From positions 2,284,312 through 2,348,311 of the forward strand of contig BFEA01000001.1 of the NCBI GenBank assembly GCA_003427395.1: 64,000 nucleotides of DNA. The letters run 5' to 3'. Shown here piece after piece: positions 4,536 to 44,089 of this stretch. The notes below the pieces were generated by a model. That model had not been told where the DNA came from. It did not search any database and worked only from the letters and a program-made list of their open reading frames with translations. How positions within the stretch are numbered: the stretch's first letter is position 1; each line of letters begins with the position of its first letter. Source of the DNA: Chara braunii (lineage: Eukaryota > Plantae > Charophyceae). A program made the translations under genes and the position numbers.

Positions 4536-4544
4536 CCTCGAAAA

Positions 4545-13490: not shown

Positions 13491-13608
13491 AATTACGCGT
13501 GTGGTGTATGTCTTGCCCTCGCCTCTCTTTGGTTCTTTGTCGAATTTTCATTCAATTACGCGTGTGGTATGTCTTGCCCTCGCCTCTCTTTGGTTCTTTG
13601 TCAAATTC
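13491..13608. repeat. Tandem duplication, ~63-bp unit x2
   Basis: AATTACGCGTGTGGT(GT)ATGTCTTGCCCTCGCCTCTCTTTGGTTCTTTGTC occurs twice. Confidence 0.9.
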
Positions 13609-13619
13609 TCCCTTATGAT

Positions 13620-18460: not shown

Positions 18461-20102
18461 AAAAGATAGACAAATTACTCAAAAAACACTAATTCCCTTA
18501 ACTAAGAACTCTTTGTCAAGTGAAGCTGAACTTCCTTAGGCCCATCAAGCTTTTTCTTCATTGCTGAAATGATGTTGTTTACAACTTCAATGTGCCGCTT
18601 CTTTAGGTCCATCAAACTTTACCTTCATCACATAAATGATGTTGCTTACATCTTCAATGTACACAACCACGAGTTCTCTGAACTTGACACTGCGTCAATA
18701 CTTAGGAAACTGATATCTTATCACTTCCTACTGCAACTGCTTCTCACAGTTACTTTCCATTTTTAGAGATCTGACGCTTGTAGATCGATTGTAACTCTGT
18801 ATCAGTGATACTTTAATCTTATTAGTTTTGTAACTTGCGAAAATAAAAAAATTAGTGCGCATGCAAAAATGAATATGAATCGTTTGATGACTCTCTCTTA
18901 TTCCTTCATGTCAAAAATTGACATGCTAAAAATTGACATGCTCGAAATTGACATACTGAATTGACAATGCAATAATGATCAAAGTCTACCGAAATTTCAG
19001 TCTTGCAGTCTCGCTATCTTACTGTATTTCTTTCAGTTTTATGAAACTGCTCTCTTACTTGACGATTGACCTCTCTTTACTATATTTGTGGTCATAGTAG
19101 AAAAATCAGATGAGGATCTCTGAAGATAAATTTCGAAGTCTCGACCCTTATATCATGAACTCTTGAGTCACCCATCTCGGATATCTCATATACTTTGTCC
19201 TTTTTTTCACGGGTAAATCTGTAAGGACCACGCCATCATGACTCCAAATGTTCAGTCCATTGAGTCGCTAGTGAATTGTTATAAAGCAAGACGAGATCAT
19301 AAATTTTTAGGGTTTTTTTTTTTATGTATTGTTCCAATTCCACCTCTCTTGATTAGACAACTGACTAATGACCATCCTCTCTGCAACATTTAACACAGCC
19401 TGCTGAACTTCTAATATCTGTCTCATTCTGATCTTAGAAGTTCTATAATGAAATATTTTTTATCTTTTTCTTAACCACTAAGTCTTGGCTATGCTTTCAA
19501 TAGGTAAAATACCATATCGACCATACCACAAAGTGAAAGGTATATAGTCAGTGGTCCTCTCAATCGTGATGTTATCCACATAAACTCTACCTCGTAGCAC
19601 CTCTAACCAATTGCTGAGATTTCCCTTACACCACTTTGTTTGTGAATCCTTCAAAGTCTTATGACCCCTCTCAACAAGTGCATTCACCTGAGGATGATAA
19701 GTAGTTATATATCTGATTTTGACACTCAGTTTCAAAGTGTTTTTTCTTACAATCTTATTTTTAAATTATGATCCTGTGTCTGAAATTAACTCTCTAATGA
19801 AAGGATATTTGAGATAAATTTCCTCTATCCAATCAACCACTTGTTCGACTGTTTTCCTTTTCAGATTTTTCGCTTCAGCATAACCAAAAAAATTATTTTT
19901 TATGTCTAGTATGTATCTCATCCCTTCCCTGACTTGGGGCATAGTAATGAGATACAAATGAACTCGACCACTTGGTTTTATCACCATAGTGAAAATAAAG
20001 GGTCAATCAATCTTGTTGTAGACCTCTTTTGACACAATAAACACGTCTTACAAAATCAGTAAATCATCTCTCTCATGCCAAGCAAAAAATAAAGTTTATT
20101 TC

Positions 20103-20886
20103 CTGTGTAGTGCACCGAACATGTTCGGCACCCCACCAAGAAGCCGAACATGTTCGAACGCTCGACCGAGCGCGAACCGAACATGTTCGGGCGAGCGCAA
20201 ATTAGGGGGCTGTCGAGCGCGTCCTCGTGTGTGTATGGTGCATATAGTGTGTGTGGGTTGTGTGTGGTGTGTGTGTGTATGCATGTGTGTGGTATGTGTG
20301 TGTGTATGTTCAGGAGTGATGAGCAATAACCCCCAGGGCCCCCGAACCCCTATATGTATACAAAATATATTAAAAAAATAAAAAAATAAAAATGTTCGGG
20401 CTCGGTGTATTTTGGGGCACGATTGGGCTGGGTATCGAGCGTTCGGGTTCGGTCACCGAGCACGAAAGAGATGCTACGCAACTTATTTCTAACTGTTTTT
20501 TTTTTTTCTTCTGCATACTACTCTTAATGGAGACCTGCGTAGCACCGTGTTTACGTTCGGAGGCGAACGCAAACATGTTCGCCCGAACGAGAAAAAACCT
20601 CAAAAACTCTCTGAACGTAAATATAAAAAATATTTTTAAAAAAAAAATCAAAAAAATATAAAAAACATATATCGTATGTAAGATATTAATACAATCAATT
20701 TTTGCCTTGGAATCTGTTCAAATTCGTGGTCAATCATGAGTTAAAAATAAAAAACCGAAAAAAAAATTAATTTTAATTTTATTTTTACGAAAAAAAATTA
20801 CGTTCACCCGAAAATATTCGCGAGTTGTTCGTGCGAACACGCGAACACGTTCGCACGAACGTGAAGGGGCGCGAATAGATACGCAG
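20103..20886. mobile_element. MITE-like insertion interrupting gypsy pol
   Basis: Abrupt compositional change with many CGAACATGTTCG/CGAAC/GTTCG motifs at both ends and a (TG)n tract. Exact ends and TSD not resolved. Confidence 0.65.
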
Positions 20887-23800
20887 ATGGAGACAACCCA
20901 CTCTTGTTAATCACAAAGAACCGTCCTCTTTTAAGTCTGAATTTTTTCTTCAAGTTTGTGCAGTTCATTTTTTCTCTTTCTATTGCTTTCTTAATCTCTT
21001 GATAACTCTCTTCGTATTCTTCAAGGATAAACATAATTTCTTACTCTTTCTTTTGAATCTCATCATCATTCTTTGAAGCGGAACTTTCTCTTAGTTCATG
21101 GACAACCACAAATGCCGCATTGATTTCCGTGTACCAGTCATTCTTATCTTCCTTTTTCTCTTTCTCATTTCATGGATATAAGCATAAGAGACTTTACCCT
21201 AGTCGTCTCTTTCTTCAGACCACACACATTTCTTGTATGAGTTTGGTCTCTTGGAATCTTTGTCATCTTCTTTATTTAGAAATTCATCAGCATAAGCTGA
21301 CTTTTCAGTAGTTTCCTCAATATCTTCGTCATTATCTGTTTTCCACTTAATTCGATTGAAGTCATCTGCTCGATTGTTTTCAGTTAATTTTTTTTCCAAC
21401 TTAAAGTTAAAGGTTCAGATAAAGACAATTCATCTTCTTACTACTAGATCTATCTGTCGGTGTTTTTTCATAACATCAATCACTCCAGATGCATCAGTCC
21501 TCAGAATGAACCTTCTTCCAAGCACATAGTGTCCGAAACACCTGAGGCAATATATGATTGTCAGTAGCTCTTTCCTGAATTGGGTGTAGCCTTTTCATGT
21601 GAAATTGAATGTCATGCTTCTAAACCTTACATGTCTTTCTTTATCATTCTTATATTTTTGTACAAGTACACCACCAAGAACAATTGACTCTCCATCTGCC
21701 TCGATGATAAAATATCCTCCCTTCTCACCATCATAGTAAGACACTCCCAATACTAAACCTCCATCTTTCAATTTTTTTCGTAGATCTTTAGCAGCGATTT
21801 GCCTTTTTTGTGTCCATGACAAGTCAGCTCCTTGCCTTACCATATCCCTTAGAGACTTTTCAAGGGTAGTCAAATGAGGAATGAAAATCCTCCAGAACCT
21901 ACAGAAAACACCTAAGAAGCTTCTGACCTCTGACACTCACTTAAGAGACAATGGTCAACTTAGGATCTTATCTATCTTCTTGGGGTCGGGGTTTCTACCT
22001 TTAGAGCACCATCTAAAACGTAGAATGATTACTGTCTGAAATAGAAGAGACTTTGACCCACTTGCAGTCAAATTGTATTTTTGAAGTCTGTCTAGGACCT
22101 ACTTTATACCCGCTGCATGTTCCCTGACAAACTTCCTAACACCATCACCAACCAATGTCTTATCTCTTTTTACGTTTTTACCGAATTATCATCAATATAA
22201 AGATTTAAGATAAATATCTTATATGACTTGGATCATGTCTCTTTGTACCACTGCCACATCATTAGTCCACCTTTGTGATACCACACACATCTGGATAAGA
22301 CCTTTCGCCATGTGCATGCCAGTCATGGGTCGACTAGTGAGATCAATGAGATATTGATGATAGTCAAAATATAAATCAATTAACGAATAAATACATCGAT
22401 AAGAAAATGACTCAGAAATGAGATTAGCATTATAGAGGTTACGTGCATCATGTGTTGCCACTAAGTTTCACTTTTGGAGATTTTGTATCCATCTCAAACC
22501 ACCTTCTGGTTTCTAAAAACAAAAGCAGCAATTAACATACGGTCCGTCAGCAGACTCAACAATATTATAAACAATTTTTCTATGAAGATATTTCACCACC
22601 TTTGATTCTTCTTTTTCATCATATTTAGTTGGTCTATAATTCCAAGCGATATGATCTACTATCAAGATCTTCGTCATTCTAATCATATCCTCATCCAATC
22701 GTCCTCTCTATTCACAAGTAAAGAAAAAAAACACAGAGAATTTATATCACACTTTGAATATATATTCCTTCTCGTTAGGCCAGATAAACTGATCTGAATT
22801 CATCCTCATTGTGTCAAATCTCTCTCTAGTAACCCTATTCCCAAGTTTTGCTAACTCCTTTAATGCTTTAATGATTCTACTTTTCTTTTTTAATGCTTTA
22901 TCATGATTTTTTTTTTAATTAAAACAGTCAACGGGTTCTTTTGCACCCCCTTGGGTTATATTTTTTCTTTGACTTAATGACTTTTTTTTTTTTAAATGAT
23001 GAGTTGATGCAAATCTCAATTCCATTTTAACACTCTTGACAGATTCAATAACCTTCTTGAATTCATCAATTTGGTCATCATCATTTTTGAGTCGCCCAAA
23101 AACTTTTATCATTTTCGAGATCTGATTAATGCCTACCGCAATTTCTTCTTTGGTTCCTCGTTTACCTTTTTCTTTCAGTTTTCTTGTCATCTCAACAAAA
23201 TTTTCCTTTCTTATAGATTTAATTGACATTTTATATTTAGGATGATTTGAATTACAAACCACAAATGTATGTTTCTGATCACTCTCTGGATCGTGCAATC
23301 CAATCCAAGATGACCCTTCATGACTGAGGAACTGGATATCTTTCATTCTATGCAAGAATATGGTACCCAAAATACAATCATTATCCATCTCTGAAACCAC
23401 GAATCCTAACACCTCAACACAAACAATTTCAACCTCAATGACCAAATTATCAATGAAGCATATCAAATAAAGAGTTATAGCAATGTTACTCAATTGGTGC
23501 TTTGAATTTCTATCAATAGTTCAGATCACAAACTTCCATAGTCTTTTGAGAAAGAAAATTCATTTCTGCCCCGGAGTCTATTAAGATTTTGATCTTCATT
23601 TGATTGATGTAGATGGTCATGTACCCACAACCCACGGTTGTAAATATCATATTTCATCCTGGAAATGACTTGTCAGTTTCAGCAGGGAAATCCAAACCCA
23701 AGTAGTTGATTTCCATTTTTCTCCTTTCAATCCATTTTTTAAGTTTTTATCTTAGCTTAGATGCTAAGGTCATTGTCTCCTTAAATGACATAGTTACATA

Positions 23801-24382
23801 ATTTTCTTCCAAGATCTTTTTAGCTTAGATGCTAAGATCATTGTCTCCTTAAATGACATAGGTACATTATTTTCTTCCAAGATTTTTATGATCACATCAC
23901 TGATTTCCACCTCATCTTCTAGCTCACTTTTGAAAATGAATTTTATTTTTTTCCCTCGTTCGTTCTTTCGAGATGAGAGGTTTTGTTCCTAATCATCAAG
24001 AATTTCATTGACCACACTTTTTGTGGAAGACTGTAGGTAGAGACTTGACTATTGCCACCATCTCGTCTCCATCTAAGAGGGTAATGTTCTCCTTGTTCAA
24101 TACCGTTTGTCTCTCACTGTCAGTGAAATTAGTTAAGAAGATGTAATATGTCTGGAACTCGTCCATGTATGAAATTTTTCTGGCTGTTCAAATGAACGTC
24201 TGAAGGAAAACGTTGAATGCATTATATGTAGTTCTTCTGATGTTAAGAAGATTCTTGCTATTAAAATATTTATCAAACTCTCTTCTCATTCTGTCTTTAA
24301 TTTCTTCCCAAGCAGTAATTTCATCCATCAACTCTCGAACTGTAAGTCTTAAGTCAGAATCACAATATGATAGAAGCTTGCG

Positions 24383-24865
24383 TCACTGTCTATCAGTCTA
24401 ACCATAACAAAGTTTAAATAACTCATATTGATCTAAAAAATCATGTATTTGTGGTCCTCTGAAACATGAAACTATTTCATCAGGTCGTTTTGTTCTTACG
24501 ATGTCTGATTCTCCCTTCATAGTATCAACTCTCTCGACCAATTACCATATGATACCCACTACAATCTCTTAACGAGTCCCTGTAGAGGAGCTAAGTCTTT
24601 GAACTGACAATCTTTAGTCATAATTATAATATGACAGAAGATGCTTGAGTCACTGTCTATCAGTCCAACCATAACGAAGTTCAATTAACTCATATTCATC
24701 CAGACAATCATTGACTTGTGGTCCTCTGAAACATGAAATTATTTCATCAGGTCGGTTTGCTCTTACGATGTCTGATCCTTCTTTCATAGTATCAACTCTC
24801 TCGACTAATTCCCATATGACACCCACTAGAGTCTCTTCAAAAGTCCACGTGGAGGAGCTAGGTCT
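24383..24865. repeat. ~267-bp tandem duplication in the gag N-terminus
   Basis: TCACTGTCTATCAGTC...GTGGTCCTCTGAAACATGAAA...TTCATAGTATCAACTCTCTCGAC at ~24383 and ~24650. Confidence 0.9.
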
Positions 24866-27800
24866 TCCTCTTCCAACCATCTCGACCATCAATTTTTCTT
24901 AATACCAATTTTTCTCTCTTCTCTTGTTACCTTTTAACATTTTTCTTCTTATTCTCAATCCCTCACTATCTTTTTAAGAGATACAAATTCGCCTCTTTCC
25001 TCTCTTGTTTGTTCCACCCCTTAAAATTTTTGTAGGTAGAGAGTATAAGCAATAATAGTATGTGTAGAGATTAGAGGCAATGCAACTCTTCTCAACTTTC
25101 CAATATAATCCTCATTTAGTTATTTATCAATGTCTCTGCTCAGTCTTCACAGTCACTCGAATCATAAAATACCTTGTCATATCAATAATTTCGTAATCAA
25201 ATTACATCGTTTACTGACCACTGCTAACTCTTCTACAAATATGAAGAACTCTACTTATAAAAGTAAGATTTTTGGACAGGAGAGGTGGTTTTCTTTTATT
25301 TTTGAAAGCTTAATGAATACCCCCACCTACTCGTATGATGAGTGATACATGTGACAATAAGGACTGAGAGAATCAGATAATGGCTTTAACGGAGCCCAAC
25401 CCATAAGATACATCTGTGGCATGTGTGATGAGGTCAATCAATCTAATCTATTGGTTAGCTGAAAGATTGGAGTGTCTAATTAATCCCCACAATGGGGATG
25501 TTCCTTTGGGAAAGAACTGGAAAAGGAAGTGTATAGATCAATCGAGTTTGAGTAAATTGATGTGTGAAAAGAAAAGAGACTGAATAAAGACTGAGATCCT
25601 GAATTTTGGCCCACCACTGAATTTGAGTTTTAGCTAAAGGTAGGATGATCAGGGTGCCCGACGTGATAAAATATCGTTAAAAGAGACTGGAAGTGGTGTA
25701 ATCTCAAGTTTGGCTTTGGATGACTCCCTGTTCGTGATTGTAGCTAGTGAAAAGTGGTTTTATCCACTTGTGGAACTAAAAGTTGGAACGTGTCAGTGAC
25801 TGACCGATTATTCGGCTATTTTAGATTCCTACACTAGTTAGGAATTAACTGAGACTTTGGACCGTTGACACTAGCTTAGTTGTTATGAGGAATTAAGGCC
25901 TAGCGTTGTTATAACTTATTGACCGTTTTAGTCGAAGTTAAGAACTCGAGGAAGTAATCACATAATTTTTTTTAAAAAAATTATGTTTGAATGGTACTTG
26001 GTTTATGCATTCGTTGCGACGGGGACGTCGCTTAATAGGGTCCGGGCAGACTGTCGTACCAAATACCCTTACAAGGGTATTTAGCCTATTTTCTGCAAGT
26101 CGCACCAATGCGGCCTCATCCGCTTGACGGTGCACGAGCGGGAGGTAGTTTAGGTCCTTGCCCGAATGAGTGGCGTGTGCGGGGTATTGACGGCGAGGTG
26201 CAATCATGTGCAACCTGGGTGTGCACGCCGTCATGGGCTAGCAGGACGTGCGACCCTTCGTCCGCTTACCTTTTTCGTGTTTTTACGTTTTACTTTTATT
26301 TTATTATTTATTTGTCTTATTTCAAAAATTTGCTAAAGTTCCTTTGATTCGGTGGTCGGTTCCGAGGCCGACACCGGGCCCGACTAGTCTGGCACAATTG
26401 CTACGTCACCGGACACAGGGTACCGACGAAAAGTCCACCCTACCCACGTTGAAATATGGATTGGAGAGGTCAAAGTATGTGGGAGTGGTGGAGTCCGTGG
26501 TCGTGGCTTCCTTTATTTCCCGTGTGGAGAGTGTCGGTAGCCTAAGGACGGAAGGGAATTGGAGAGCATCCGAGCGGGCCGGTGGGAGGCCACACTATAA
26601 GTCGCACCTCAATTGGAACCCCTTCTCCACTCCGGTTATCAAAAGTTATGTGTTGAATATTTATTTCTGCCGCCAAGATCTCTGTCGGGGACTTGCCTCA
26701 CTTAATCCACGCTTAGGGTTGCAGCGGGCCCGTGTCTGTGACTCTGCGGGTGACTAGTATGAAAAACCGGAGTGAGACTTGTCCGCAACAGGTCGGAAGA
26801 AGTGTCAGGGCTTGCTTGAAGGAAAGGGGGACGGAGGAGGCGGTGGTGAAGCGGCAGCAATGCTGCTGTGCCATTCTGTTGATCGGACTTGGGTATAGGG
26901 ACGAAAGACTAATCGAACCGCCTACGGCAAATCTCCCCTAAGGTTTCCCGTGGGCCGGCTAAAACGACTGCGGAGACCACTGCACTAAGGAGCATAAGGA
27001 TCGAGGGTGAGAAAACGGGAAGGCAGCCAAAGCAGGGGCGAACCTGGGCGACAGTCTGGGCCAGATGCATTCGATATGAAGAGACAGCAAGGGCGATGGC
27101 GGAGAAAGGAGCCGAGCGCAGTCGAGGAAACACAACTCTCTCGTTCCTGAGTGGAATCGAGAGAGGAAAAACGCGATTCCAAGGTTTTGAAGGTTGGCGA
27201 TGCCGATTTTGACGTTAGTTTGAATAGAGGATTAGTAAAAATGCAGTTGGAGGGAAAACGAGTGTGCAAGGATATGTGGGGAAAAAATGGAGACTGTATA
27301 GTTCGCGAGGTACATTGTGAAATCGGGTGAAGGAAAAGCTGATGTCGGGGTTTTTGCCCCGAGCGAGTCCGAAACTGTTGTCAGATATGGACGAAAGTTA
27401 GTAGAAAAGAGGAGTTAGTGGGATAATAGGTGCGCTAAACTATGGCCGAAGGAGAGTTGGTGGGGGAGGAGAAACAAGAGTTCTACTCAAAACTCGGCGG
27501 GATCGGTTAGGGAGAGGACTAAAGTAGGGGTTTTAATGGTGAGCGAACCTGAATCTATGGTTGGAATAAGGTGAAAGGTAGTTTAGGAGTTGTTAAGAGA
27601 AGGTTGTGCGCAAAAGCATAGAGAAGGTGGGCGTGGTTGTGTGAGAAAGCGAAGCTCTCGCTCGTTCTTTGATGGAGACAAGCTAGGGAGGGGTTGTTTT
27701 AAAGGTTTTCACGGGTGGTGAATCAGGTAGGGGTGTTAGTTTTTGAAGCAGCGTAGTGTGGGGAGAGTTCCGAAATTGAGATATACTTCTCATGTTATAA

Positions 27801-28934
27801 GGGAAGGTTCGTTCTCGTTTTGCCCAGGGGAAGTTTGGAAAGGTAGTGTATATTTCCATGTTCTAACAAAAGATTCATACCTGTTTTACTTATCCTAGCG
27901 ATGGGAGTAGTTCTCTCTGATACCCTGCGCTGTACTTGGCCAGAACGGGCATGACAGTTTATGTAAAGCCAAAAAGGGGAGGAACAAACGCAGGAGAGAG
28001 TCAGAAATCGGTTATTGTCGGAGTACAGTCGTTGAACGTGATCGTGCTATTGACCTTATGGCTGCAAAGATCACGCTATCCACCGTCGTTTGAAATTCGC
28101 ACCCGTGTTGCAGGTGGGTAGCAGCAGGTAAGGGTGTGGTGACTCGGCTCATATCTGTCGGGGAGAGAGAGAAGGAGAGCTCGCTTCGAAGACCGGGCCG
28201 GCAGTGCAGAACAAGCAGAAAGTCGAGCTACGGTTTTGAACAGCAGAAGGCAGAGCGGTGGGTTAACCGCACCTATAATTGTCTGTACTTCAGCACCAGT
28301 TTCATCCTCGTACTACACGTGGCTGAGCAAGGGAGCAAGGCCTGCGGTGGCAGCTTGTCCTTGTGCTGATTGCAAGTCCCACTATAGTGGAACTCGTAGT
28401 TCCAACCGGGATGTTTACCATATCTGTCGTGGCTCTGATAGCAGGACTAGTAACCGTGTTTACTGCTGTAGTTGCGAGACTAAGGGTGTCCTTGTTACCC
28501 TACGGTGGTGATAGAGTATTGTTAAATAGAACGGAGGCGGCTACCTTCTTTCCTTTTGAAGCTACTGCTGATTGAGTCCTACATTAGACTGTCGTTTCCC
28601 ACTGTTCAAGTTGAGATGAGAGTTTGTTATTGTGTTATAGAGGACTCTGCTCCCTTCTGAGCCGAGAGTTGTTGTGCACTCGCAGTGTGTCGGCCACTCG
28701 CTTGTGAAGCTACCTCGAGAAAAGATTGCTCACTTATTGGGACTGTTGTCTGTCAAGAGCCCACCGTTTCCCGCTGAGAGGACCCCAACAATGCAAGCGC
28801 GGCTGTTGTTTTTAGGGGATTACAGCTACATGCAGAGCCCTGCTGCTATATTCTTTTTAAGCAGGGGGAGGGGTTGCTGAGATATGGGAAGTAGCCAGGG
28901 GGCTAACAACTGGCAGTCGGATTTTGGTTGACCA

Positions 28935-29212
28935 AGCTGCTGCCGTTTGACCATCATAGCGGGACCCTCAGGCGCATCGAGGCACCAAGGCCCTCTCCTG
29001 GGAGTTGAGTCAGTCCCTCTCCTGTATCTCGAGAGTATGAAACCCCTCCTTCTTTCGTTCTAACTCTCAGTCTAATCCTGTTCTGAGAGGAAGGCGGCAG
29101 GCAGGATTGCAACTCATAGGACCGCAGCAAGACTCTATGGGGAGTCAGCCCACCGATTGCGGGAGCTCTGCTGGAACTCGGGAGGAGTTCTGAAGGCAGG
29201 GAACTGGGAGGT
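28935..29212 (+). promoter_or_regulatory. Conserved block ending in a putative splice donor (unit A)
   Basis: 27-nt identity CCCACCGATTGCGGGAGCTCTGCTGGA with 36308-36334; ends AG|GTAAAAG. Confidence 0.45.
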
Positions 29213-29464
29213 AAAAGTTTCGTTTTCCTCTATAAACCTAATTATAACCGCTATCTGTATCTCTTGCTATGGTTGACTGAGTGTACTGCGTGTACCCTTA
29301 CTTTGACTTTTACGTTTGACTTTCCGGGCATGATTTAGACTAAGTAAATGAATATATGCGCAATGTCAGTTTGAGTTTCATTGTTTGACTGAAAGCGGAT
29401 TGTGGGGTTGCGTCTGGAGGAAGGATGGGAGGAAGGCAGTTTGGCTCGAGTTTAACTTGGTCAA

Positions 29465-30200
29465 CTAAAGTCAGGGTTAATCTTCATAAGATTGGAGGAC
29501 CCAGTGCTATGTTTATTTTCGATTGCCTGAAGGAGTGGACAGGTTCCCAGAAGTGTGGGTGGTCTGGTTGCTCTGATTTGCGAGGGCTGCTTGTGATTGA
29601 CTTTCAGGGACCAAGCATGTTCCATAAGTTTGGGTGACTTGGTCGCCTTGTTTACTTTGGGTTTCTTTCAATTTCTTTAGTTTCTGAACGAGGAGGTCTG
29701 AGCATGTTCCATAAGTTTAGGTGACTCAGCCTCTTCCTGCTTTGGTTTTAAGAGAAATGAACCAGACTGAGGACCAAGACATGTTCTTTAAGTTTGGGTG
29801 GTCTTGGTCCAACGCCATGCACATGCTGGAACCAAAAGACTATAACTTGGCTATACTTTACTGTTATCCTACTTATGAACAGGCTAGTCAGACAGGGTTC
29901 CATAAGTTGGGTGGTCTGACTACAGCTTATCACTAACTGAAGAGAGTACGAATTAAGAATAAACTTGTGGTACGAAGGGGCAGACTGAATCTTGAGCTAA
30001 AGATGATCGGTTCAGTTATATGCTACCGTAAAAGGCTAAGTGCAGATAATTATATAAAACTCAGATACTTAAACAGTTCAGGACGACTAGGCTGGCTAAC
30101 CTAGCCATGTGCCCAAAGAAGAGAAAAGTTGTAGTACCCTGTGTTTGTGAATATTCAATGGTTGAGCTAGACATGTTCCATAAGTTTGGGTGGTCTAGCT
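29465..30200 (+). repeat. Hairpin array, variable stems around a 20-nt core ATGTTCCATAAGTTTGGGTG
   Basis: Clear units at 29609-29644, 29698-29729, 29771-29810, 29885-29922 and 30165-30200, plus degenerate ones. Confidence 0.85.
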
Positions 30201-30489
30201 TTATGCCCTATGTAAGCTGGGTTTAAAGGGATAAATCATTGAAAGATCATGAACTATTGTTTGATAAGGTTGACTTTGGGGATTGTGAGAGTACTTACCT
30301 TTGTGGTTTGACCTGCATGTGGCCGAGTGAGACTACTACTTAGTTTGAGTTTCAGTTTGATAGGTAGTTGCTTTAGTTGCTCGCCACGTGCTAGAGCTAT
30401 AGGAGTTAGTTTTAATTTCATTTTTTGAGTTAAGTTTAGTTTTACTTAAGTCAATTTCTGCATTTTCAGGGATCATTTCTTATCCTTGG

Positions 30490-31050
30490 TTTTGTATAAA
30501 TTTTGGTAAGCTACTTTCTCTACGGGAAGCACTGCCGAAATTTCTGCAAACCCAAGGAGCTCGTTAAATTTTGGTTTTTCAAAGTATAAATTGTATAAAT
30601 TTTATATATGACTTAGTAAAAATGAGGGAAGTCTCATTTTTTAAAAGGAGTGCTGCCAAAATTTTTGCAAATTGAGGGAGTAAGACAAAAATTGGACCTT
30701 GAGAAGTCAAAGTCACTTTAGATTCTGAACTTAGCTTTGTATAAATATTGGATTAATACTTTTCTGAAGGGAGTGTTGTCAAAATTCTTACAAAACTAAG
30801 GAGTTAGTTAAATTTTGTCTTAGTTAAACTCAGGTTTGCTCTGGCTTCATATATGACTTAGTAAAATTTGGAAAGTCTTCTTTTCTAAAGGGAATGCTGC
30901 CCAAATTTTTGTTAATTCAGGGAGTCGAACAAAAAATTGACTTTGGAAAGTTGAACATTATTTTTGTTTTCATATCCGGGCTGATATAAATTCTGAGAAG
31001 GCATTTTTCCTACGGGAAGCGCTGCCTAAATTTTCTTAGATTAGAGGAGA
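30490..31050 (+). repeat. ~120-bp tandem repeat x5 with core GGGAAGCRCTGCCGAAATTT
   Basis: Cores at ~30524, 30647, 30769, 30890 and 31014; two copies in unit B (~38083, ~38168). Confidence 0.85.
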
Positions 31051-34000
31051 TAGATTATATTTTGATAGGTGTCGATCCTGACAATCCATTCTGTATGCGG
31101 GAAATTTTGCCATAGGTCTACCTTTTTTTGGGTATTGACTTAGAGATAGACCTAGGTTTGGTTATCAGGAGAGTCTTGAATGAGAATGTGTCATGGGGAT
31201 TGANNNNNNNNNNNNNNNNNNNNNNNNNNNNNNNNNNNNNNNNNNNNNNNNNNNNNNNNNNNNNNNNNNNNNNNNNNNNNNNNNNNNNNNNNNNNNNNNN
31301 NNNNNNNNNNNNNNNNNNTGATCGATTATATTTTGACAGGTGACGATCCTGACAATCCATTCTGTATGGGGGAAATTTGGCCATAGGTCTACCTTTTTTT
31401 GGGTATTGACTTAAAGATAGACTTAGGCTTGGTTATCAGGATAGTCTTAAATGAGAATGTGTCATGGGGATTTGTTCTCCATACACAAATGATTTAGCTT
31501 GGGCATTGACCAGTCTTATAATACAGACTTTTTTTGGATATTCGATCCAGGATTTGGACTAGTTTCAGCTTGATCCTACGAGGATTATCTTCGGTTATCA
31601 TTGATAATAGGTCGGTTGGTTGATCGTCGACTCGTCGGCTCATGACACAACTTTGCTCACACCTTACCTCAACTCGATTGCCTTATCCCTAAGATTTGAT
31701 ATGCTTCTTTGAGGGTTTTTAACCAGACTTCTTTTAATGACCATTATGAGGAACTTATGAGATTTGTGGAAAGTTGAGCTATGACTGGGGCTGGAGTGTG
31801 TGAGGCGTGGTGAGAGTTACAAAAAACAGTAAAGTTGACCACATTGGTGTATGACAATGTGACTATTGTGTATGCCTATGTTTTATGCAGGTTAGTACGT
31901 GGAGCTTGATATATGAGCCGTACCTTGGAGACAATGAGAATGACAACCATGTGACGCACGATCTGCATACCTGATGAGTTCATGTTTCCCCTTCTTTTAT
32001 TTTATCCCGAGATCTGATTTGTTGGGATGTTTATTTATTTATTGAGTGACTTTGCTTGTTAATTTTGATAGTTGGACGTTGTAGTCCGTGACAGCCGTCA
32101 AAGTCGAACCTCTTGACTTCTCTCCAGGTCCTGGATGATAGAGCTGGTCTCCGGGGCAATAAGAGACGATTACCATCACAGGTATGAACTTGTGTGCCAC
32201 CCACTCTCCGCAGGGTGCAGAAGAGGGTGTGGTTTTCAACCGCACTTGGCGGTTGTCCAGCGTCGAGAGATCAATCCCTCAATGCGCATGTCAGTCGACA
32301 CTTGAGTGTCGAATGCGACCCTCGAGATTAACGAGGATCCCGTGAGTATGGGTATTACATAGTACGCTGTCGGCCCGAATACTCTTACAAGGGTATTTGG
32401 GCGCGTTTTTGCAGCTTACATGAAGTACGTTCTTTGACGATATCTAGGAGCGTGCCCTGTTTTTGAGCGACCACAACCAATTCTCAGGGGTTGGGAGTGA
32501 CACACGCTTTTGAGTTGATTAGAGATTGTGTGAGTGCGCACTTTGGGGGCACGCGTTAGCTTGACCAAACAATTGACCAATGAAAACTATGAGACGTCGG
32601 TAGAGCAAGTTAGTGCTAGGTTAGAATCTTAGATAAAGTCACAGGCTCGCACGCGCGGGCGAAGTTACAGGGCAGCGCAGAGGTGACCAGGTGAGGCTGC
32701 GATTAGGAGTTTGTCTGACTTGCTGAATCCTGGGATTGAGGCTAGCAGCAAGTAGCAGAGGAGTGAAGGAGTGCAGTTTGGAAGATAACTGAGGGGTTGA
32801 GGGTCTTGTGGGACTATCCCTCTTAGTTTTGCGAGGGGTTTCGACAGCGGGCCCATGGGACAGGACCGAGGATCAAGCGTCAACGGTCCTACCCACTTTT
32901 TCTAAGTTTTTATTCTTAAATTTTACTAATATTAATATTTTCATTTTAGTTTTTTCCCATATGGGAAAATTTTACTAATATTAATATTTTCATTTTAGTT
33001 TTTCCCATATGGGACGTGGTCCGGTACCGGTCTCAGGACCGGTCGTGAAACAGTGGATACACCCATGAACTGTTGAAATACAGACCCAAGTTCGGACCAG
33101 ACGGAGTTGCTCGATCGTCTAGCAAGCTATAAGATGGCACGGGGGCACTGTGGCGGAGGCAGCGATACAGCCGGGGAACGCGTTCGGTGGAGTTGGGTAT
33201 ATGGCCGAAAGACTACTCGAACTTCCCGATGGCTGGTTCCTTCCTAAGTTTCCCTCAAGATAGCCGGAGCTGTTGAAGCAATCCGACTGCACGACTGAGC
33301 GACCCTCGACGGAAGAAGGCGAGGCCGCAGGGGCGTGGAGGAAGCGAGAGCAAGGCAAGGGAGAATCAAATGAATCTGGACGCGGGTCCGCGCCAGATAC
33401 AGTCGACGAAAGAGATGGTGGGAATAGAGGAGGTAAAAAACAGTTAACTCACTCGATTCTTGTCGGAATCGAGTGAACTAAGGATGACGATTGGAGTTTC
33501 CTGGGCTGGCGAATTCAGATCTGTAGTCAGAATTAGTAGTAGGTTAGTAGGTTAGTCGGTGTAAGGGAATGTGACCGCGCGGAGCTATGGCGGAGGGGAG
33601 AGGAAAGAGAGAAGAAAGGGCATAGCTCATTCGTTGGTGTACGGATTTGGACGGGGAAAGAGGCGATCCCGGGGTTTTGACCCTGGGCGAATCAGTTTAT
33701 GAAGTCAGTTTTAGAGGAAAGTCAGCAGAAGAGGAGGTTAATAGAAAAGTGGGTGCGCGGAGAGTGTCGGGGAGTTGGACATGGCCGCACGAAGAAGTGC
33801 ACATCTCACTCGATTTTGGATAGAATCGAGGGAGGAAAAAAGGTAGGTAGGGGTTTTGTGCAGGGGCGAAACTGTTAGTAACGTCAGTTTGGCTGCTAGA
33901 TCAGTAGAAAACGAGAAGGAAGAGAATCGCGGTGCGCTGAGATAGTGAGGAGAAGAAAGGGGGGCAGCGGCGTGAGTGAATCCGGTCGGAATCCGGTCCA

Positions 34001-36094
34001 GATGCGCGGAGCAAGCATAGCGCATGCGGATGAGCGAGCGCGCGAGAGGAATAGGTGGAGTAGAAGTTAAGAGGAACGAGGTAATGGGAAGGAGGAAGCA
34101 AAATGGTTGGTAACAACAGCAGACGAACAAAGAACAGTGAGTGGCAAGCACGGAGAGCACGAGGGAGATGAGAGCTAAAGAATAGATGAGCATAGAAGGA
34201 GACGAAGGGGATGACCACGGGAGGAAGGAGTGAAGAATGAGAAAGACGAAAGTTACGAAGAGGTGAGAAGACTGACAGGAAGGGGGAGGGAAGGGGAGTC
34301 AGGCTACGTACCTGGTCGGGGCGTGCCCGCAACTGCAAGGCGATGTAGCAGGCAACCGCCGTAGGTGTATCTTCCCGTGTTCGAGCGGGAGATTCGTTCG
34401 ATATTGCTCATCGTTCGACGGAGGTAGAGCAAGTCCAGCGTGCGGGGGAAAGAGAGTGGAAGAAAAGTAAGTAGGCTTGCCTGCCTGCTATGGTGAAGAT
34501 CGCTCGTCGTACCAATCAGCATCGAAGTCACCGTAGTGATGCGGGTCGTGGTAGTCGGAAGCGCCAGCTCGTTTTCTTTCCGTAGCTGATCTACGTCGAG
34601 TTTCGTTGGTTTCACTGCACATACGTGTAGTTCATGTGACCATGCCACATGGAGAGAGAGACGGGGAGAGGATAGAAGGGAGAAGCATACACACCTGGCG
34701 GTTATGAGAATTTTGCCTCGAAGTGTCCCCCCCCCGGCAAGCCAAGCTCTGAACTTGGTCGGGTTGACGACTAAGTGCAGTTGCACGCAGGAGGTAAGAA
34801 CGACGAAGGAGGCGAGTAGGATGATAGCAACAGGAAAAGAAGGCGAAGAAGCACTTACCTGACGGCTGGAACTGGTGATGTGGATGAACTGGAAGACGAG
34901 TTATGGTGCCAAACTGTGTGCTGACCAACTTCGAACAGGGCTTTTGCGGTAGGTAGGGAGGCAGAGGGAACTTACCGCATGATGGGAGTGCCCGACCGAC
35001 AGTGCGGGATAAACCGAATGTTGAGCTAAGGGGCCATGTTCACCGGGCATGTATTCGCCCATGTTGAGCTAAGAGACTCATTCTGATTTCGCTCATTCAG
35101 TCGGCGGAGGTAGGGTGAAGTAGATCGCGAGGTGGAGGCTTACCAACTGGCGGGCGTGTTTCTTATCATCTGGTTCGTTACAGTGCTACTCATAGCCCGT
35201 GTGCCTTCCTTTTTCGACGGTCTACGGAGTCGTGTTGGCCTCCGGGACCTCAGTGGGGACAGTGTGACATCGTAGGGGGTTCTGTGTGCACAGGGGAAGA
35301 CTGTGGCTTACCTGAATCCTCGTGAAACGGTAGGGGCTTTACTGTGCTTCTGCTGATATTTCTCAAATTGGGCATGGACTCTCTGTGGCGGTGTTGCCAT
35401 TCTAAACATAAGTGGTAACTTCTCTGCTATATTGAACTGTGGGCTAAAGAGACCCTATAGCTAGACTGTATTTGAGTGTTGTGCTTCGCTGTGCCACCAT
35501 TGTGCGATGCTAGGGTTGCTGTTCATTGACCTTGCTAGTGCTAAGATTGCCAAGCCTTGAGCAAACTGGATTTGCTGTGCTTTCGGGGTACTAAAGCTGA
35601 GTCTTTAGGTAGTTGTTTCGGTTTGTCATAACTACTGTTGGATCTTAGGACTGTGCTGCTACTGTGCCTCTGCACTGTGATGCATCTTTAGTTGAACCGT
35701 CTGCTGGGAACAAATACTGTACGCTCTGCTGACTGTGGATTGTTGTACTTACTGGGCACCTTGCCCCAAACCGCTTGCTGGCTATCATGGTGCGCAACAT
35801 TATGGAGGTTTCTGCGAGCTCTCGGTTGTTACATTGATATCACCACGGCTGCTGACTTCATCTGCGCCACTATGCTGTATTTCGTTGTGTACCGCTGCAT
35901 CCCGAATAGACTACGAAGTTGTATCATAATTGAACACGGTCTTTCTGGGCTGTGAGGCAGCAGTCTGGTCAGAGAGAGGGATAAGGGAAGCTTGGAGGAG
36001 TGAATGGGGTTGGTATGGAGGAGGCTAGTGCTACAGTTTTGAGGTTCGGGGGACTGTTACTCTGCGTTTCGGCTGTGATCTGACCATCTGCACT

Positions 36095-36370
36095 GCGTGT
36101 TATTGGCCATCATTGCGGGGCCCTCAGGCGAATCAAGATTTCGAGGCCCTCTCCCGTAAGTGTGAGCGCACCCCTCCAGTATCTGAGAGTCTTAATGTTT
36201 CTTTCGCTATCCTTCTTACTCTAAGTCTAGTCTGAGGCTAGGAGAGGAAGGCCGTAGGCGGGATTGCAACCCGTAGGACCGCGCCAAGGCCTCTGTGGGA
36301 GCTTCGCCCCACCGATTGCGGGAGCTCTGCTGGAGCCCAGGAGGGGTTTTGGAGGCCGGAAACTTCAGGT
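36095..36370 (+). promoter_or_regulatory. Conserved block ending in a putative splice donor (unit B)
   Basis: Homologue of 28935-29212; ends CAG|GTATAAC. Confidence 0.45.
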
Positions 36371-36687
36371 ATAACTTTCGTCTGACGCGTGTGATCCCTT
36401 CCCCTAACTACATTATTCCTTTGCGTACTTGAACATAACTATGAGAGGTTATTACCGCGTATTTTTGTTATGTATGGCAGGACATGCTTTGTGAAGGGTT
36501 AAATAAACAAATATAAATGAGAGTTCAGATAATCCTTCAATGAATTCAGACAAGGGAATTGGGGGAAGGTGGGAGAAAGGTTTTGCATGTGTTTGACCGG
36601 GTCAACTCAAGGCTGAGCCCCTCCGGGTGGATGTGGGCCCAATGCTATGTTTTATTGGTGTTTGTTGGACTGTATGAATGGCTTTAT

Positions 36688-37675
36688 GGCTTGTCCTACC
36701 CGGGTAGGATGGATCAGTCGCTGTTTTCTTTGAGGGTTTCTGAACAGGAGGACGGACACCCTGGGTAGGGAAGACTCCGAATCCTGGCGTTTATTTGAAT
36801 GAGTTGAGGTGTATGTTTCTTCTGAGGGAACAAAGGCATAAGACTAAGCGTACCCTAGGGTTAGGGAAGCTTAGTCGTGAGCTATGAATCAACTGGTCAA
36901 CCAAAGTATAAAATCTTATACATATATTATAGAACTTATACTTCTGACAGACCGGGCACCCTGGGTAGGGAAGGCCAGTCAATAAGTCAGGTAGGACAAA
37001 AGAAAAAAATAAAATAGATGGAGAATAAAAACAAGGTAAGTGGGCAGACTGAACGTACCCTAGGGTTAGGGCGGTTCAGTTGTATGCTCGTAATAACACT
37101 AAGGAGCAGAGAGTTAGTATAAATCCGTTTTTATTTTCCCTTCTAAACAAAAAGGGCGGATTGGAAGTTCCATTAGTTGGAAAGGTCCGATCGACTGCCT
37201 AACAAGAGAAGGAAAAAGTTTGTGCAAGTATTCGTATCATATTAACTGTTGTATGACTAACTAGGCGTACCCTAGGGTTAGGGCGGCCTAATGATATGCT
37301 TTTGTCGTTGATGTGATGTAAGTTGGACGTACCCTAGGGTTAGGCCGGTCCAACTTTTTGTCGATTGTACTTACGTTCAGGCAAGTTAGGCTTACCCCTG
37401 GGTAGGGATGATCTAATTTTATGCCATATGTAACCTTGTTTAAGGCAAACTGGGCACACCCGAGGGTTAGGGCAGCCCAATCCTATGCTTCATGTCGTTA
37501 AGTTGGCAGAAGTCAGGTGTACCCTAAGGGTTAGGGCGGTCTGGTCATATGCATTACGTATATGGTTCATGTTATGTGGGCACACCCTAGGGTTAGGGCA
37601 GTCCAGTTGTGCGTACCTTTACTTGTTTACTTAGGCAGGTTGTGCATACCCTTAAGTTAGGGCATTGTTTGATCA
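36688..37675 (+). repeat. Hairpin array, variable stems around a 19-nt core GTACCCTAGGGTTAGGGCG
   Basis: About a dozen units; clearest at 36842-36876, 37048-37080, 37262-37290, 37320-37356 and 37451-37479. Confidence 0.88.
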
Positions 37676-38842
37676 TATGCCATAGGCAAGGGTGTTACTG
37701 ATGGAGAAGAACTGAGTGATCTAACGAACTACTTGGGTCAAACTGATGTGGCATTGTGAGAGATGTTTGTTTATGCATGCTTGTGGACTCTCACTCTGGG
37801 GCGTCTTTTTTGATAGGTTAGCTGCTTAGACGCTCGACAAGTGCTGGAGCCATAGGTAGATGAGATGGATGATTGGAGGGGAAACTTGGGACAAAGATAG
37901 GGTTGTCCTTACTTGAAGTCAGAGTTGACGATAGCTCACGATACCATCTTCTAAAAGGGGATTATGTAAACTATCTTCAAGCCTAAGTATCAAGTAAGTG
38001 TCAGAAGTTAGTCCCAAGTATAACTTTGCTTTGTCTTTCTGTTTTCAACTTTGTATAAATTTTGGCAGCCTCCTGTTCCTACGGGAAGCGCTGCCGAAAT
38101 TTTTACAAATCTGAAAGAGTAAGTTAATTTTGGACTCGTAGAAACTATGGAAAGACACTTTTCCTACGGGAAGCGCTGCCGAAATTTTGTAGAATTTAGA
38201 GCGTTAGATTATTTTCAGCTAGGAGAAATCTGGCAATCCATCCTGTTTAGGGGATATGCTACCGGAATTTCTTACATTTTTAGATGAACATCAGAGGTTA
38301 GTTAGAATGGTAGGATTATTTCTTGATCACTCAAGCATGGCTTGGGTACTGGCTTGTGCTGCATTGCAGGTCACCTTTATTCATATTGATTCAAGGCTTG
38401 ACTATCTTCAAGCTGGTCCTACAAGGATCACCTTCTGTTATCCTTTGATAACAGGTCGGTTTCCGACTCAACTCTAATTCACTCTCGCTACTCAACCTAA
38501 AGGCCTTAGCCCCTGTGGATTGAAATGTTTCTTTTGGTTCTTTACCCAGACTTTATTGAATGGCCATTTAAAAAGGACCGAGTACTTTATTTTGGGAGGT
38601 TGGACAGAGGTTGGGGTTTGTATGGTTAAGGCAAAGGGGTGTCAGCGCAGAGAATGATTGAAGTTGACCCCGTGTAGTGCATGGACTTTTGGTTGAATTT
38701 TTGATGTGATTGCAGGTATGTTTGGTGATTCGGACTTTGGATTTGACTACCTACGATCACTAAGGTATATATGGCTGAGAGGAATCCCACTGTGATTGTG
38801 AGAAGTGATCGTCACATATTTATAACCTTCTATAAATATATG

Positions 38843-40302
38843 GAGGGTTGTCGAGCCCCGGCCCCGGGGCCCCGGCGGGGGTCCCGGGGGCCGGGGGTCG
38901 GCACCCCTGGCCCCGGCAAAAAAAGTGGAAAAAAAAAATAAAAAAAAATTAAAAATACAGGGGTTTGCGCAGCCGCAGCCTGCACCCCCTGGGCCAAACT
39001 GCGATATTGCAGTTTTGGCCCGACCTCGCCCCCCCCCCCGGGCTACATCCCCCCCATGTAGTGCGGGCGCGGGGCCGGGGACGAGGCCCAGCGGGTGCGG
39101 GGCCGGGGTTGCCTGGCAGCGGGGGCGGGGGTGCGGGGTCTGGGCAGGGGCGGAGGTACGGGGCTGGGTGTGCGGGGGGTGGNNNNNNNNNNNNNNNNNN
39201 NNNNNNNNNNNNNNNNNNNNNNNNNNNNNNNNNNNNNNNNNNNNNNNNNNNNNNNNNNNNNNNNNNNNNNNNNNNNNNNNNNNNNNNNNNNNNNNNNNNN
39301 NNNNNNNNNNNNNNNNNNNNNNNNNNNNNNNNNNNNNNNNNNNNNNNNNNNNNNNNNNNNNNNNNNNNNNNNNNNNNNNNNNNNNNNNNNNNNNNNNNNN
39401 NNNNNNNNNNNNNNNNNNNNNNNNNNNNNNNNNNNNNNNNNNNNNNNNNNNNNNNNNNNNNNNNNNNNNNNNNNNNNNNNNNNNNNNNNNNNNNNNNNNN
39501 NNNNNNNNNNNNNNNNNNNNNNNNNNNNNNNNNNNNNNNNNNNNNNNNNNNNNNNNNNNNNNNNNNNNNNNNNNNNNNNNNNNNNNNNNNNNNNNNNNNN
39601 NNNNNNNNNNNNNNNNNNNNNNNNNNNNNNNNNNNNNNNNNNNNNNNNNNNNNNNNNNNNNNNNNNNNNNNNNNNNNNNNNNNNNNNNNNNNNNNNNNNN
39701 NNNNNNNNNNNNNNNNNNNNNNNNNNNNNNNNNNNNNNNNNNNNNNNNNNNNNNNNNNNNNNNNNNNNNNNNNNNNNNNNNNNNNNNNNNNNNNNNNNNN
39801 NNNNNNNNNNNNNNNNNNNNNNNNNNNNNNNNNNNNNNNNNNNNNNNNNNNNNNNNNNNNNNNNNNNNNNNNNNNNNNNNNNNNNNNNNNNNNNNNNNNN
39901 NNNNNNNNNNNNNNNNNNNNNNNNNNNNNNNNNNNNNNNNNNNNNNNNNNNNNNNNNNNNNNNNNNNNNNNNNNNNNNNNNNNNNNNNNNNNNNNNNNNN
40001 AAAAACAAAAAAAAAACAGCAGAATGAATCTTCTGCTGAAACATGGAACCATACACCGCCATATGCTATGTCTTTTGTGCATTTGGTGAGTAGTGGAGCA
40101 GGCCCTACTGGACGTATTCGTAAGAAAACAAAAACAAAAAAACGAGAGAGCAGAATGAATCTTCTGCTGAAACATGGAACCATACACCGCCATATGCTAT
40201 GTCTTTCGTGCATTTGGTGAGTAGTGGAGCAAGCCCCACTGGGTGTTCGCACGACCTATTATATATGTACATACATACGCGTTGGGTGTTCGCACGACCT
40301 AT
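38843..40302. mobile_element. Secondary insertion(s) in unit B spanning an N-gap
   Basis: Very GC-rich left end and a 131-bp tandem duplication at 40020-40241. No counterpart in unit A. Confidence 0.5.
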
Positions 40303-40923
40303 TGTGACTGCGTGCAAAGGTTAAACAGGTTATACTTTGAGGGAAAAGGGAGATTCCTCTTTCATCCTTTTAACTTTTAGAATTTTATAGTTGGACGTTA
40401 TAGTCCGTGGCAGCTGTCAAAGTCAAACCCCTTGATTTCTCTCCAGGCCCTGGATGATGGAGCTTGCCTCCTAGGCCACGAGAGCTGACTGCCACCACAG
40501 GCATGAAACTGTGTACCACCCACTCTCTGCAGGGTACAAAAGAGGGTGTGGTTCTCAAATCGCACTTGGCGGTTGTCCAACGTTGAGAGATTAACCCTCA
40601 AGACGCGTGTCAACCGACACTTGAGTGTCGAACGCGACCCTCGAGATTAACGAGGACCGCATGAGTATGGGTACTATATGGTACGCCATCATTGCGACCG
40701 CTTGCATACGCTTGCATTGCGAGTCGATATAAGTTAACCTTACGTCCGCGCGATTTTATACTAAGTCTTACACGCGACGCCTAACCGAATTCTGGCTTAG
40801 AAAGTTATGGGTCAGATACTGAAGGGACTAGGAGTGTTGTTGTGTTGCTGTGTTATTTGTTTTTTGTCTTTTTCATGTGTGTGAATGTTGTGATGTACAG
40901 CGTGGTCTGTGTGATTCGTCCTA

Positions 40924-41028
40924 CCTTCTTCCCTCAAATACAACGTACGGTTATTATAGCTGTATTTGAGCCATCTTTCAGTCTAGATACAACTATAATG
41001 ACCGTACGTTGTATTCGGGGGAAGAAGG
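40924..41028. mobile_element. 105-bp Tc1/mariner-type foldback MITE with TA TSD
   Basis: ~45-bp TIRs CCTTCTTCCC..AATACAACGTACGG; TA at 40922-3 and 41029-30. The empty site GCGTCCTAGTCGACCGGCG is present in unit A (TA at 41677-8). Confidence 0.9.
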
Positions 41029-42096
41029 TAGTCAACCGGCGTTGAGTCGCATTTGGGACCTCAGCCCCCTTGTGCGTCGATTCGTGTACGGGTTCGATTC
41101 TGGGCGTTAACCGCACGTACCCCCTATGCTACAGCGAACGAGAAACGCCCTCGGTTGGGCCACCTCTGCGATTGCATACCAAAAGCCTTCGCATATGGTT
41201 CAGTAGCTTGGCGGGGATACGCCCACCTAAGGGATGGTGACAACTCCCGCAGGTGGAGGTAAGTGGTGCCTCGCGTGACCCTGTCCTGTCGTAGGGGCTC
41301 GCGAGAGGTACGGCTGGCGCACTCGGCCGGAGCGGCAAAACGCTCTCCGCGACAAGTCCTGCCAAATCCTGCGTGACGCGGCCGGGAGGGTCCCCGTGCG
41401 GGACCGATGCGCTCGACAACGCCATCCTTAAGACTGTTTGCGTATGCTTGCTTTGCGAGTCGATATGAGACTAGCCCTGCGTCCATGCGGTTTTATACTA
41501 AGTCTCGCGCGCGACGCCTATCCAATTTCCGCGTCAGAAAGTTATGGGATGACTACTAAGGGACTAGGAGTGTTGTCGCGTTGTTTGTTTTGTGTCGTTT
41601 TGTGTATATGTATGTGTGCATGTTTTAATTGTTATGTTTTTAGAGTGGTGTACGCGTAGGGGTGTGAGATGCGTCCTAGTCGACCGGCGATGAGTTGCGC
41701 TTGGGACCTCATCCCCCCAAGGCGTCGGTTCGTGTGCGGGTCCGATAGAGGCGTAAAACCGCGAGTACCCCCTATGCTATAGCGAACGAGAAACGCCCTC
41801 GGCTGGTCCACCTCTGCGATTGCAGCTGATTAGCTTTCGTACTGTGGACTGGTAGCTCGGCGGGGATACGCCCACCGAAGGGAGGTGACAACTCTCGTAA
41901 GGTGGAGGTAAGTCGTGCCTCGCGTAGGCCCTATCCTTTCGTAGGGGCTCACGAGAGGTATGGCTTGCGCGCTCGGCAGGAGCGGCTTGCGGAAGCTCCA
42001 TTATGTATTCGCGATGAGGATCAGACCAACTCCTGCATGACGCGGCCGGGAGGGTCCTGCCCCGTTTTGTGCGGTGCCAGACCGATGCGCTCGACA

Positions 42097-43870: not shown

Positions 43871-44089
43871 CTTTCCCTTTATCATCCTCCCCTCTTACTT
43901 CTCGTCCTTCTATTGACCCAGCTACTTCTGCGACCACTAACATCCCCCCTCCCCCATCAATGGGTCCTCCAGCTCCACCGGCACCTACCTCAGGTCCTCC
44001 TTCCCCTGTGGATGTGGTTCCGCCTGTTGTTGCAGTTGATTCCTCTCTCCCTCATTGTACCCATCGACTTCATTTTCGCTATCGTGACT

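Follow-up and report, generated by a model that had tools for sequence, protein, structure and literature searches.

Hairpin arrays with covarying stems and element-specific cores in two giant LTR-like repeat units of Chara braunii

Repeat units A and B and their surroundings

The window, i.e. the whole stretch of 64,000 nucleotides of Chara braunii DNA that was analysed, consists of eukaryotic DNA that is rich in repeats and interrupted by N gaps; among its contents are microsatellites, a piece of a LINE RT and several LTR retrotransposons that are broken. It contains two colinear paralogous repeat units, A and B, which are joined head to tail and each of which carries an array of short hairpins (Table 1). 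Both units open with TGTCG, and B closes with TGGTACGCCA, which matches the reverse complement of the first 10 nt of A at 9 of 10 positions, while the final CA of A is missing at the junction. Unit B also includes a foreign insertion and an N gap at about 38860-40300. Both units have a 22-nt hairpin immediately within their left end, at 26062-26083 in A, where it is perfect, and at 32378-32399 in B.

Table 1. Features of repeat units A and B and of the neighbouring gag-pol, in window coordinates
Feature	Position	Strand	Remarks
Broken LTR retrotransposon gag-pol	19095..24898	-	Protease, RNase H and integrase pieces; starts about 1.1 kb left of A
Repeat unit A, colinear paralogue of B	26052..32367		58-85% identity in aligned blocks
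LSU rRNA pieces in A	26834-26924; 26609-26681		Sense; antisense
Unit A hairpin array	29531..30202	+	7 units, different 20-nt core
Starts of the A units	29531, 29607, 29694, 29771, 29884, 29981, 30163	+	
Repeat unit B, giant LTR-like element	32368..40688		TG...CA ends, imperfect 10-nt terminal inverted repeat
Decayed eukaryotic LSU rRNA fragment in B	33147..33277	+	Also 34869-34937
Most conserved internal block of B	36103..36368	+	74% to A 28947-29223
Probable 5' splice donor GT	36369..36374	+	Just upstream of the B array; in A at 29211
Unit B hairpin array	36686..37674	+	12 B-core units and one A-type unit
B1	36686..36721	+	Decayed
B2	36746..36782	+	Decayed, short core
B3	36842..36876	+	8-bp outer stem; orthologous to A3
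B4	36946..36982	+	Short core; orthologous to A4
B5	37047..37081	+	Exact core; arms and flanks same as A5
13th hairpin of the B array	37159..37192	+	A-type core, 13/14 letters as in A4
B6	37262..37290	+	Exact core; orthologous to A7
B7-B12	37320..37674	+	Tandem expansion, period 62-64 nt
Second repeated 26-nt motif	38078..38188	+	2 copies in B; in A at 30519-31034
Conserved terminal block of B	40381..40686	+	85% to A 32061-32367

Besides the hairpins, the two units share several other features. The LSU rRNA pieces are 73-81% identical to Rfam-confirmed LSU loci, and the first of them is common to A and B and has thus been carried along within the family. The second repeated motif of 26 nt has no covarying arms in either unit. 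It reaches the top DNA depth (200,000-300,000), and its copies differ in unit number. A structured-RNA role was considered for the most conserved internal block and rejected (z = 0.09; of the 53 pairs in a fold of two sequences, 5 show double changes). No protein-coding frame conserved between A and B was found, five A/B frames that were scanned gave no Pfam match, and no VANC-like gene was found. The protein matches of the LINE RT piece and of the integrase piece are just 36-42% identical.

The A/B family is dispersed at high copy number. In the DNA run X1, 15,921 contigs match positions 35900-38700 and 43,132 match 25800-32700. Summed over contigs, the depth is 2,500-14,000 at the B array and 52,000-78,000 at the A array, compared to 13-23 for the single X1 contigs listed; these sums are a rough guide rather than a copy number. 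Together with the TG...CA ends, this high copy number bears out the LTR-like character that the first-pass annotation had ascribed to unit B. The left centre of A (27035-28934) is single-copy in X1, being represented by one 1900-nt contig of depth 15, and both of its flanks are high-copy; this segment is a hypervariable part inside the repeat. The region to the left of A is also common to several copies, with one contig crossing the boundary.

The broken gag-pol to the left of A is possibly the element to which A belongs. On the far side of this gag-pol, an A/B-like copy was not found within the window. Furthermore, target-site duplications of 4-6 bp were found neither around B nor around A and B together, and as the ends of both units abut other elements, the true flanks may be lost. 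The shared left flank, inspected without a host tRNA set, shows no clear TGG-started primer site on the reverse strand and no pure purine tract on the forward strand. A and B are likely the LTRs of a retroelement; the label is not proven, since neither a paired LTR nor a target-site duplication nor a clear primer site could be found. A 10-mer that spans the left end of A (26044-26053) recurs at 29978-29987 and 37042-37051, in each case at the base of hairpin 5 of the array concerned. This 10-mer, for which 0.12 occurrences are expected and which was chosen after the fact, might provide an additional site for a primer or a purine tract.

The remainder of the window is occupied by other repeats. 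Inverted copies of another long repeat, 60-71% identical and with a TG-started inner boundary, lie at 1537-3484 and 14163-15775, and the hairpin array was not found in this family. An old inverted duplication of about 2 kb with 65% identity is located at 8299-10301. Two tandem LTR-like copies of 0.7 kb (77%) adjoin the end of B and precede a short internal region that has a chromodomain; together they span 40683-44090. Finally, nested long inverted repeats at 48305-48866 form a fold-back element inside a LINE, with arms of up to 146 nt that are 87-96% identical; the Rfam miRNA matches obtained there lie below the gathering score and reflect the palindrome only.

The hairpin arrays and their covarying stems

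The first-pass annotation described the B array as about a dozen hairpins with a near-constant core of 19 nt and with complementary arms that differ per unit, placed about 60-110 bp apart in unrelated sequence. Twelve units were indeed recovered, and the complementary arm pairs that had been quoted are present. The core recurs far above chance (expectation 0.00), but is less constant than had been suggested, being exact in two of the 12 units and carrying at most three mismatches in five. At positions 36867, 36868 and 37345, where the B copy deviates from the usual core letters, more than 98% of the X1 depth of related copies has the common letter (among the matches listed, 40 of 759). The start-to-start spacings of 60, 94, 106, 99, 212, 62, 63, 64, 63, 63 and 64 nt mostly agree with the earlier range (60-106 nt), except for the one gap of 212 nt. 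This gap contains a 13th hairpin, which has the core of the A type (0.04 such matches expected in the window) and receives no significant score under either of the covariance models built from B (R1) and from A (R2).

Contrary to the earlier description, the 3' half of the array has related spacers, those of B6-B12 being 54% alike compared to 43% +/- 2 after shuffling (highest shuffle 49%). These units form a decayed 63-nt tandem, which makes the contrast sharper: the arms have diverged like the spacers (51% and 54% alike, respectively), whereas the cores are 76% alike. Part of the array has decayed: the forward-strand folding z of B1, B2, B4, B8 and B12 is weaker than -1.3, and the outer stems of B1, B2, B10, B11 and B12 are not predicted to form on that strand in their local context. 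B12 is a hybrid that combines an inner stem of the B type with a loop of the A type.

That pairing is kept despite changes in the arms, as had been claimed, is confirmed by two kinds of control. In a fixed register, the arms of B form 55 of 96 Watson-Crick pairs with their own partner compared to 40.6 with the arms of other units (p = 0.0007), and this gap shrinks to 67 versus 58.3 (p = 0.03) when G-U is counted as a pair. In the alignment of all 12 units, from which B1, B2 and B4 were not removed despite being out of register, seven of the eight outer-stem pairs show double-sided changes. The resulting covariation score of 0.385 compares to 0.218 +/- 0.033 for shuffled alignments and was reached by none of 500 shuffles, a control that ignores the relatedness of the units; slid registers of the alignment score at most 0.157.

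Within the window, the arrangement is also confined to units A and B. A motif-blind scan for clusters of hairpins with a shared core and different arms found these solely in the B array and in unit A, whereas 20 block-shuffled windows yielded one pair at most, in one of the 20. When the window was scanned with R1 and R2, only the training units of each model scored below E 0.1, with weak cross-matches to A7 (E 0.63) and B5 (E 0.18), and a third array was absent. The covariation evidence as a whole covers 19-20 related units from two copies only.

The paralogous array in unit A, which is absent from the first-pass annotation, is the strongest support for the reading that pairing is kept. Here, own arms form 42 of 56 Watson-Crick pairs compared to 26.7 when swapped (p = 0.0006 over all 5040 arm permutations), and eight of nine outer pairs have been altered on both sides, purine-pyrimidine swaps included. 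The covariation score is 0.667 versus 0.326, with none of 500 shuffles as high. The cores are 86% alike within A and 79% within B, but only 52% between A and B. Both arrays nevertheless have a common fold, in which a variable outer stem is followed by an asymmetric internal loop, a 4-bp stem and a 6-nt loop that ends in GUU. The internal loop measures 3x2 nt in B and 4x2 nt in A, and in nearly all units it has been kept unpaired rather than zipped up. The inner stem of A opens with a U-G pair in five of the seven units.

In the orthologous pairs A3/B3, A5/B5 and A7/B6, the arms and flanks are kept while the cores differ, and between A7 and B6 the stem shows a double change of G-C to A-U. Taken together with the A-type core and the hybrid unit in B, this shows that cores have been replaced across the array with the scaffold left in place. 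Furthermore, the joints seen in X1, which skip or return between cores and lead to other spacers, show that the number and order of units vary among copies.

No Rfam entry matches the array, either in the scan of the whole window (E <= 1) or in that of positions 36600-37750 (E <= 5). No such array is described in the full-text literature that was searched, a scope that lies outside supplements, Dfam/Repbase and most subscription papers, and a repeat-database entry for the LTR itself may exist. Exact-pattern searches gave no match for the conserved 27-mer and the B core in metagenome_contigs, and in viral_contigs none for either of the two cores or for the rRNA-like motif. The B array is a real and statistically strong feature that is apparently undescribed.

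Transcription and orientation of the family

The A/B family is transcribed. Poly(A) reads of related copies in the RNA runs X7 and X9 cover the most conserved internal block of B and its counterpart in A on the forward strand. Almost none of the reads is near-identical to the window, so that transcription of its own A and B copies is not shown. The RNA of the related copies drops at a GT that is common to A and B, after which at least four different continuations follow; in X9 this drop is 103-fold in B and 22-fold in A, or 6- and 9-fold, respectively, after division by DNA depth. At this probable donor, unspliced reads coexist with spliced-looking ones. Since no joined read crosses the donor among the matches listed and both donors lie under the cut-off of the donor scan, splicing is deduced from loose RNA ends rather than observed. 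Coverage of the array itself is low on the forward strand in X7 and X9. In the third run, X8, reads from both strands cover unit A, and reverse RNA exceeds forward RNA 1.8-fold over the A array. The RNA start and poly(A) end of the family could not be placed from these data (X7 and X9 on the forward strand, X8 on both).

The LTR is somewhat more likely to read on the forward than on the reverse strand. The forward orientation is favoured by the stranded RNA in two of the three raw runs, by the donor and by the sense direction of three of the four rRNA pieces. It is likewise favoured by the variable left half and the conserved, G/T-rich right half of the unit, given that U3 is usually variable and R-U5 usually conserved and G/T-rich in the material presented in PMC3601003. 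Reading on the reverse strand is only somewhat less likely and is favoured by the reverse-strand gag-pol to the left of A, the reverse excess in X8 and four donor-like sites on that strand. The four sites are located in the variable half of B, at 34311-35311, where no conserved coding frame is seen.

The hairpins themselves do not clearly favour either orientation. As RNA, the forward strand folds better in seven of seven A units but in only five of 13 B units, and the B array as a whole folds equally well on both strands. In the arms, G-U combinations outnumber A-C by 18 to 8 (p = 0.076). Elsewhere in unit A, each of the three raw RNA runs contains forward-strand RNA of a locus related to 26483-26569, with one uniform set of differences and up to 301 reads (X8); this RNA has no Rfam match.

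A candidate recognition signal in element RNA

What is established for the two arrays is that stem pairing is kept with free sequence, that each element has its own uniform core, distinct from that of the other, and that unit number is flexible. On balance, the array is best explained as a selected single-stranded, likely RNA, site that is multivalent and subfamily-specific and that would mark the full-length element RNA for export or packaging. An RNA signal is preferred because the folding as RNA has about twice the stability of that as DNA and because the array would be part of the full-length RNA in either orientation. Selection would then act on a single-stranded fold that presents the core many times to a protein, with the outer stem of free sequence framing the fixed internal loop, the 4-bp stem and the 6-nt loop. 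The reader of the core may be an element-encoded protein, either Gag/NC or an accessory one, whose specificity would drift with the core. Through recombination between cores, a new core could spread along the array, the arms remaining in place. If the LTR reads on the forward strand, the array would lie directly behind the donor and be present solely in unspliced RNA, in a position like that of retroviral psi; if it reads on the reverse strand, the array would be part of U3 and, like the HTLV-1 RxRE, be located at the 3' end of the genomic RNA.

A more specific version of this proposal is tentative: the core could serve as a barcode on a sequence-free stem scaffold, be read by the RNA-binding protein of the element itself, and turn over together with that protein through array-wide core replacement. 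If so, the arrays would constitute an RNA-level code for self-recognition, as a counterpart of the VANC DNA code, by which subfamilies keep export or packaging to themselves, and units whose cores are read per subfamily would form a natural set of orthogonal RNA tags.

The best surviving alternative, although an unlikely one, is that the core is a site in double-stranded DNA, such as a promoter element or an anti-silencing target, which was multiplied by tandem duplication and whose arms stayed complementary only because template switches corrected the imperfect palindromes. Precedents are available for its parts: arrays of subfamily-specific motifs that evolve jointly are described for VANDAL/VANC (PMC5735166), arrays of palindromes for the LTRs of Sireviruses (PMC4728375), and the extension of identity between inverted arms by template switches in the excerpts of PMC3820800. 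The strand-symmetric folding of B fits a duplex site as well, and the array would fall in U3 if the LTR reads on the reverse strand. However, correction of palindromes should erase the asymmetric internal loop too, whereas this loop persists in nearly all units, and both cores keep a 4-bp inner stem of their own despite being 52% alike, something that a plain DNA site would not require. The persistence of the unpaired loop and inner stem in both cores thus disfavours the duplex-DNA explanation. In addition, the Sirevirus palindromes, with conserved arms and a variable centre, show the reverse of the pattern in A and B.

Two further explanations are quite improbable. According to the first, selection acts on the hairpins in single-stranded DNA, either in the course of reverse transcription or in cruciforms, where they would serve, for example, as sites of pausing, strand transfer or recombination. 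This would accommodate the lack of a clear strand preference in B and the frequent rearrangements between cores in other copies. However, the units are weak as DNA, with a mean of about -5.5 kcal/mol compared to -12 to -14 kcal/mol as RNA, and the preference for the forward strand as RNA in all seven A units, five of which open their inner stem with U-G, argues against it. According to the second, the hairpins bind a host RNA-binding protein that controls splicing or stability of the transcript, instead of an element protein for export or packaging. The location of the array 320 nt behind the probable forward donor and the joint occurrence of spliced-looking and unspliced reads agree with such a role, but a host protein would hardly accept two cores that are 52% alike and each uniform in its own element.

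The remaining explanations are very improbable. Dimerisation of the RNA through ACCCTAGGGT, one of the roles raised in the first-pass annotation, has in its favour that this 10-mer is self-complementary and that palindromes of Ty1 have been proposed as mediators of dimers (PMC4974528, in part). A dimerisation signal has a self-complementary loop, whereas in B the palindrome straddles stem and loop, with half of it buried in the inner stem, and it is absent from the A core, which makes this role unlikely. The units could also be minimal ribozymes, as minimal twister-sister-like ribozymes likewise combine a conserved internal loop with variable stems, with a core of G-C-U-C-A-A / G-C-U-A-G and a C-A cleavage site in the description available (PMC11620745). 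The 3x2 (B) and 4x2 (A) loops have another sequence on either strand, without the listed core residues, and the C-A cleavage site is missing in most units. A role as small-RNA precursors or ribozymes is further disfavoured by the absence of an Rfam match at E <= 5. Stems of 5-10 bp are too short as Dicer substrates. A role of TAGGGTTAGGG as telomere repeat or telo-box was discarded, as the A core does not contain TAGGGTTAGGG. Neutral decay of a tandemly duplicated hairpin without selection, consistent as it is with the related spacers of the B6-B12 tandem and the decay of five of 12 units in the B copy, is equally remote, since the arms have diverged like the spacers yet pair best with their own partner, and since the same pattern occurs in A with another core.

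For the preferred explanation, a recognition signal in full-length element RNA, the closest mechanistic analogues would be the RNA export and packaging signals of retroelements. Retroviral psi and TAR hairpins resemble the A/B units in having a stem, a bulge or internal loop, a short stem and a 6-nt loop, and psi lies behind the major splice donor. However, neither forms a dozen interchangeable copies: psi has one to four hairpins, which are distinct and located outside the LTR, and TAR is a single hairpin at the 5' end. Structured cis-acting RNA in or beside the LTR is likewise described for the MusD MTE, IAP RTE, MPMV CTE, HTLV-1 RxRE, HIV RRE and Cer1/CERV, and such export elements act on full-length RNA, sometimes via an element-encoded multimerising protein (PMC4588558, PMC12786077, PMC10309623). 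As presented in the accessible parts of these sources, each of them is one complex fold that extends over several hundred nt and often has tertiary contacts. The A/B array, unlike these, is a dispersed row of independent units of 30-40 nt in variable number. It shares with them a conserved secondary structure with compensatory changes, as seen here in two copies only.

In its mode of evolution, the A/B array appears most like the target arrays of VANC, which are also arrays of short, subfamily-specific motifs that change together along the array. The VANC motifs co-evolve with an element-encoded protein, and some are intronic (PMC5735166). In contrast to the A/B hairpins, they are DNA motifs in a DNA transposon, for which the portion of that paper at hand reports no covarying stems. 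The LTR palindromes of Sireviruses (maize Ji/Opie) resemble the A/B hairpins as several short, family-specific LTR repeats that are gained and lost among copies and can form hairpins (PMC4728375). They differ in consisting of the conserved arms of a perfect 17-nt palindrome, instead of free covarying arms around a fixed and partly unpaired core, and the conserved symmetrical arms and variable centre by which they are defined are not found in the A/B arrays. The term 'compensatory' does not occur in the excerpted text on these palindromes. Sireviruses are moreover Copia elements with LTRs near 1.3 kb, compared to the 6-8 kb of the A/B units (PMC4728375).

The way in which LTR retrotransposons choose RNA for export or packaging is largely open outside yeast, flies and mammals, and RNA export of plant LTR elements had not been studied directly according to the available part of a 2025 review (PMC12786077). 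The array offers a small, modular and naturally varied candidate signal with built-in controls, namely two cores on one scaffold, orthologous positions and a remnant of the A core within the B array, and its thousands of genomic copies would permit a strong test of covariation. The LSU rRNA pieces of A and B have a parallel of their own in Cassandra, Helenus and Ajax, which are also LTR elements with pieces of structural-RNA genes; these contain 5S rRNA-like or other small-RNA sequence in the sections available (PMC10886601), whereas the pieces in A and B are decayed LSU rRNA and lie apart from the hairpins.
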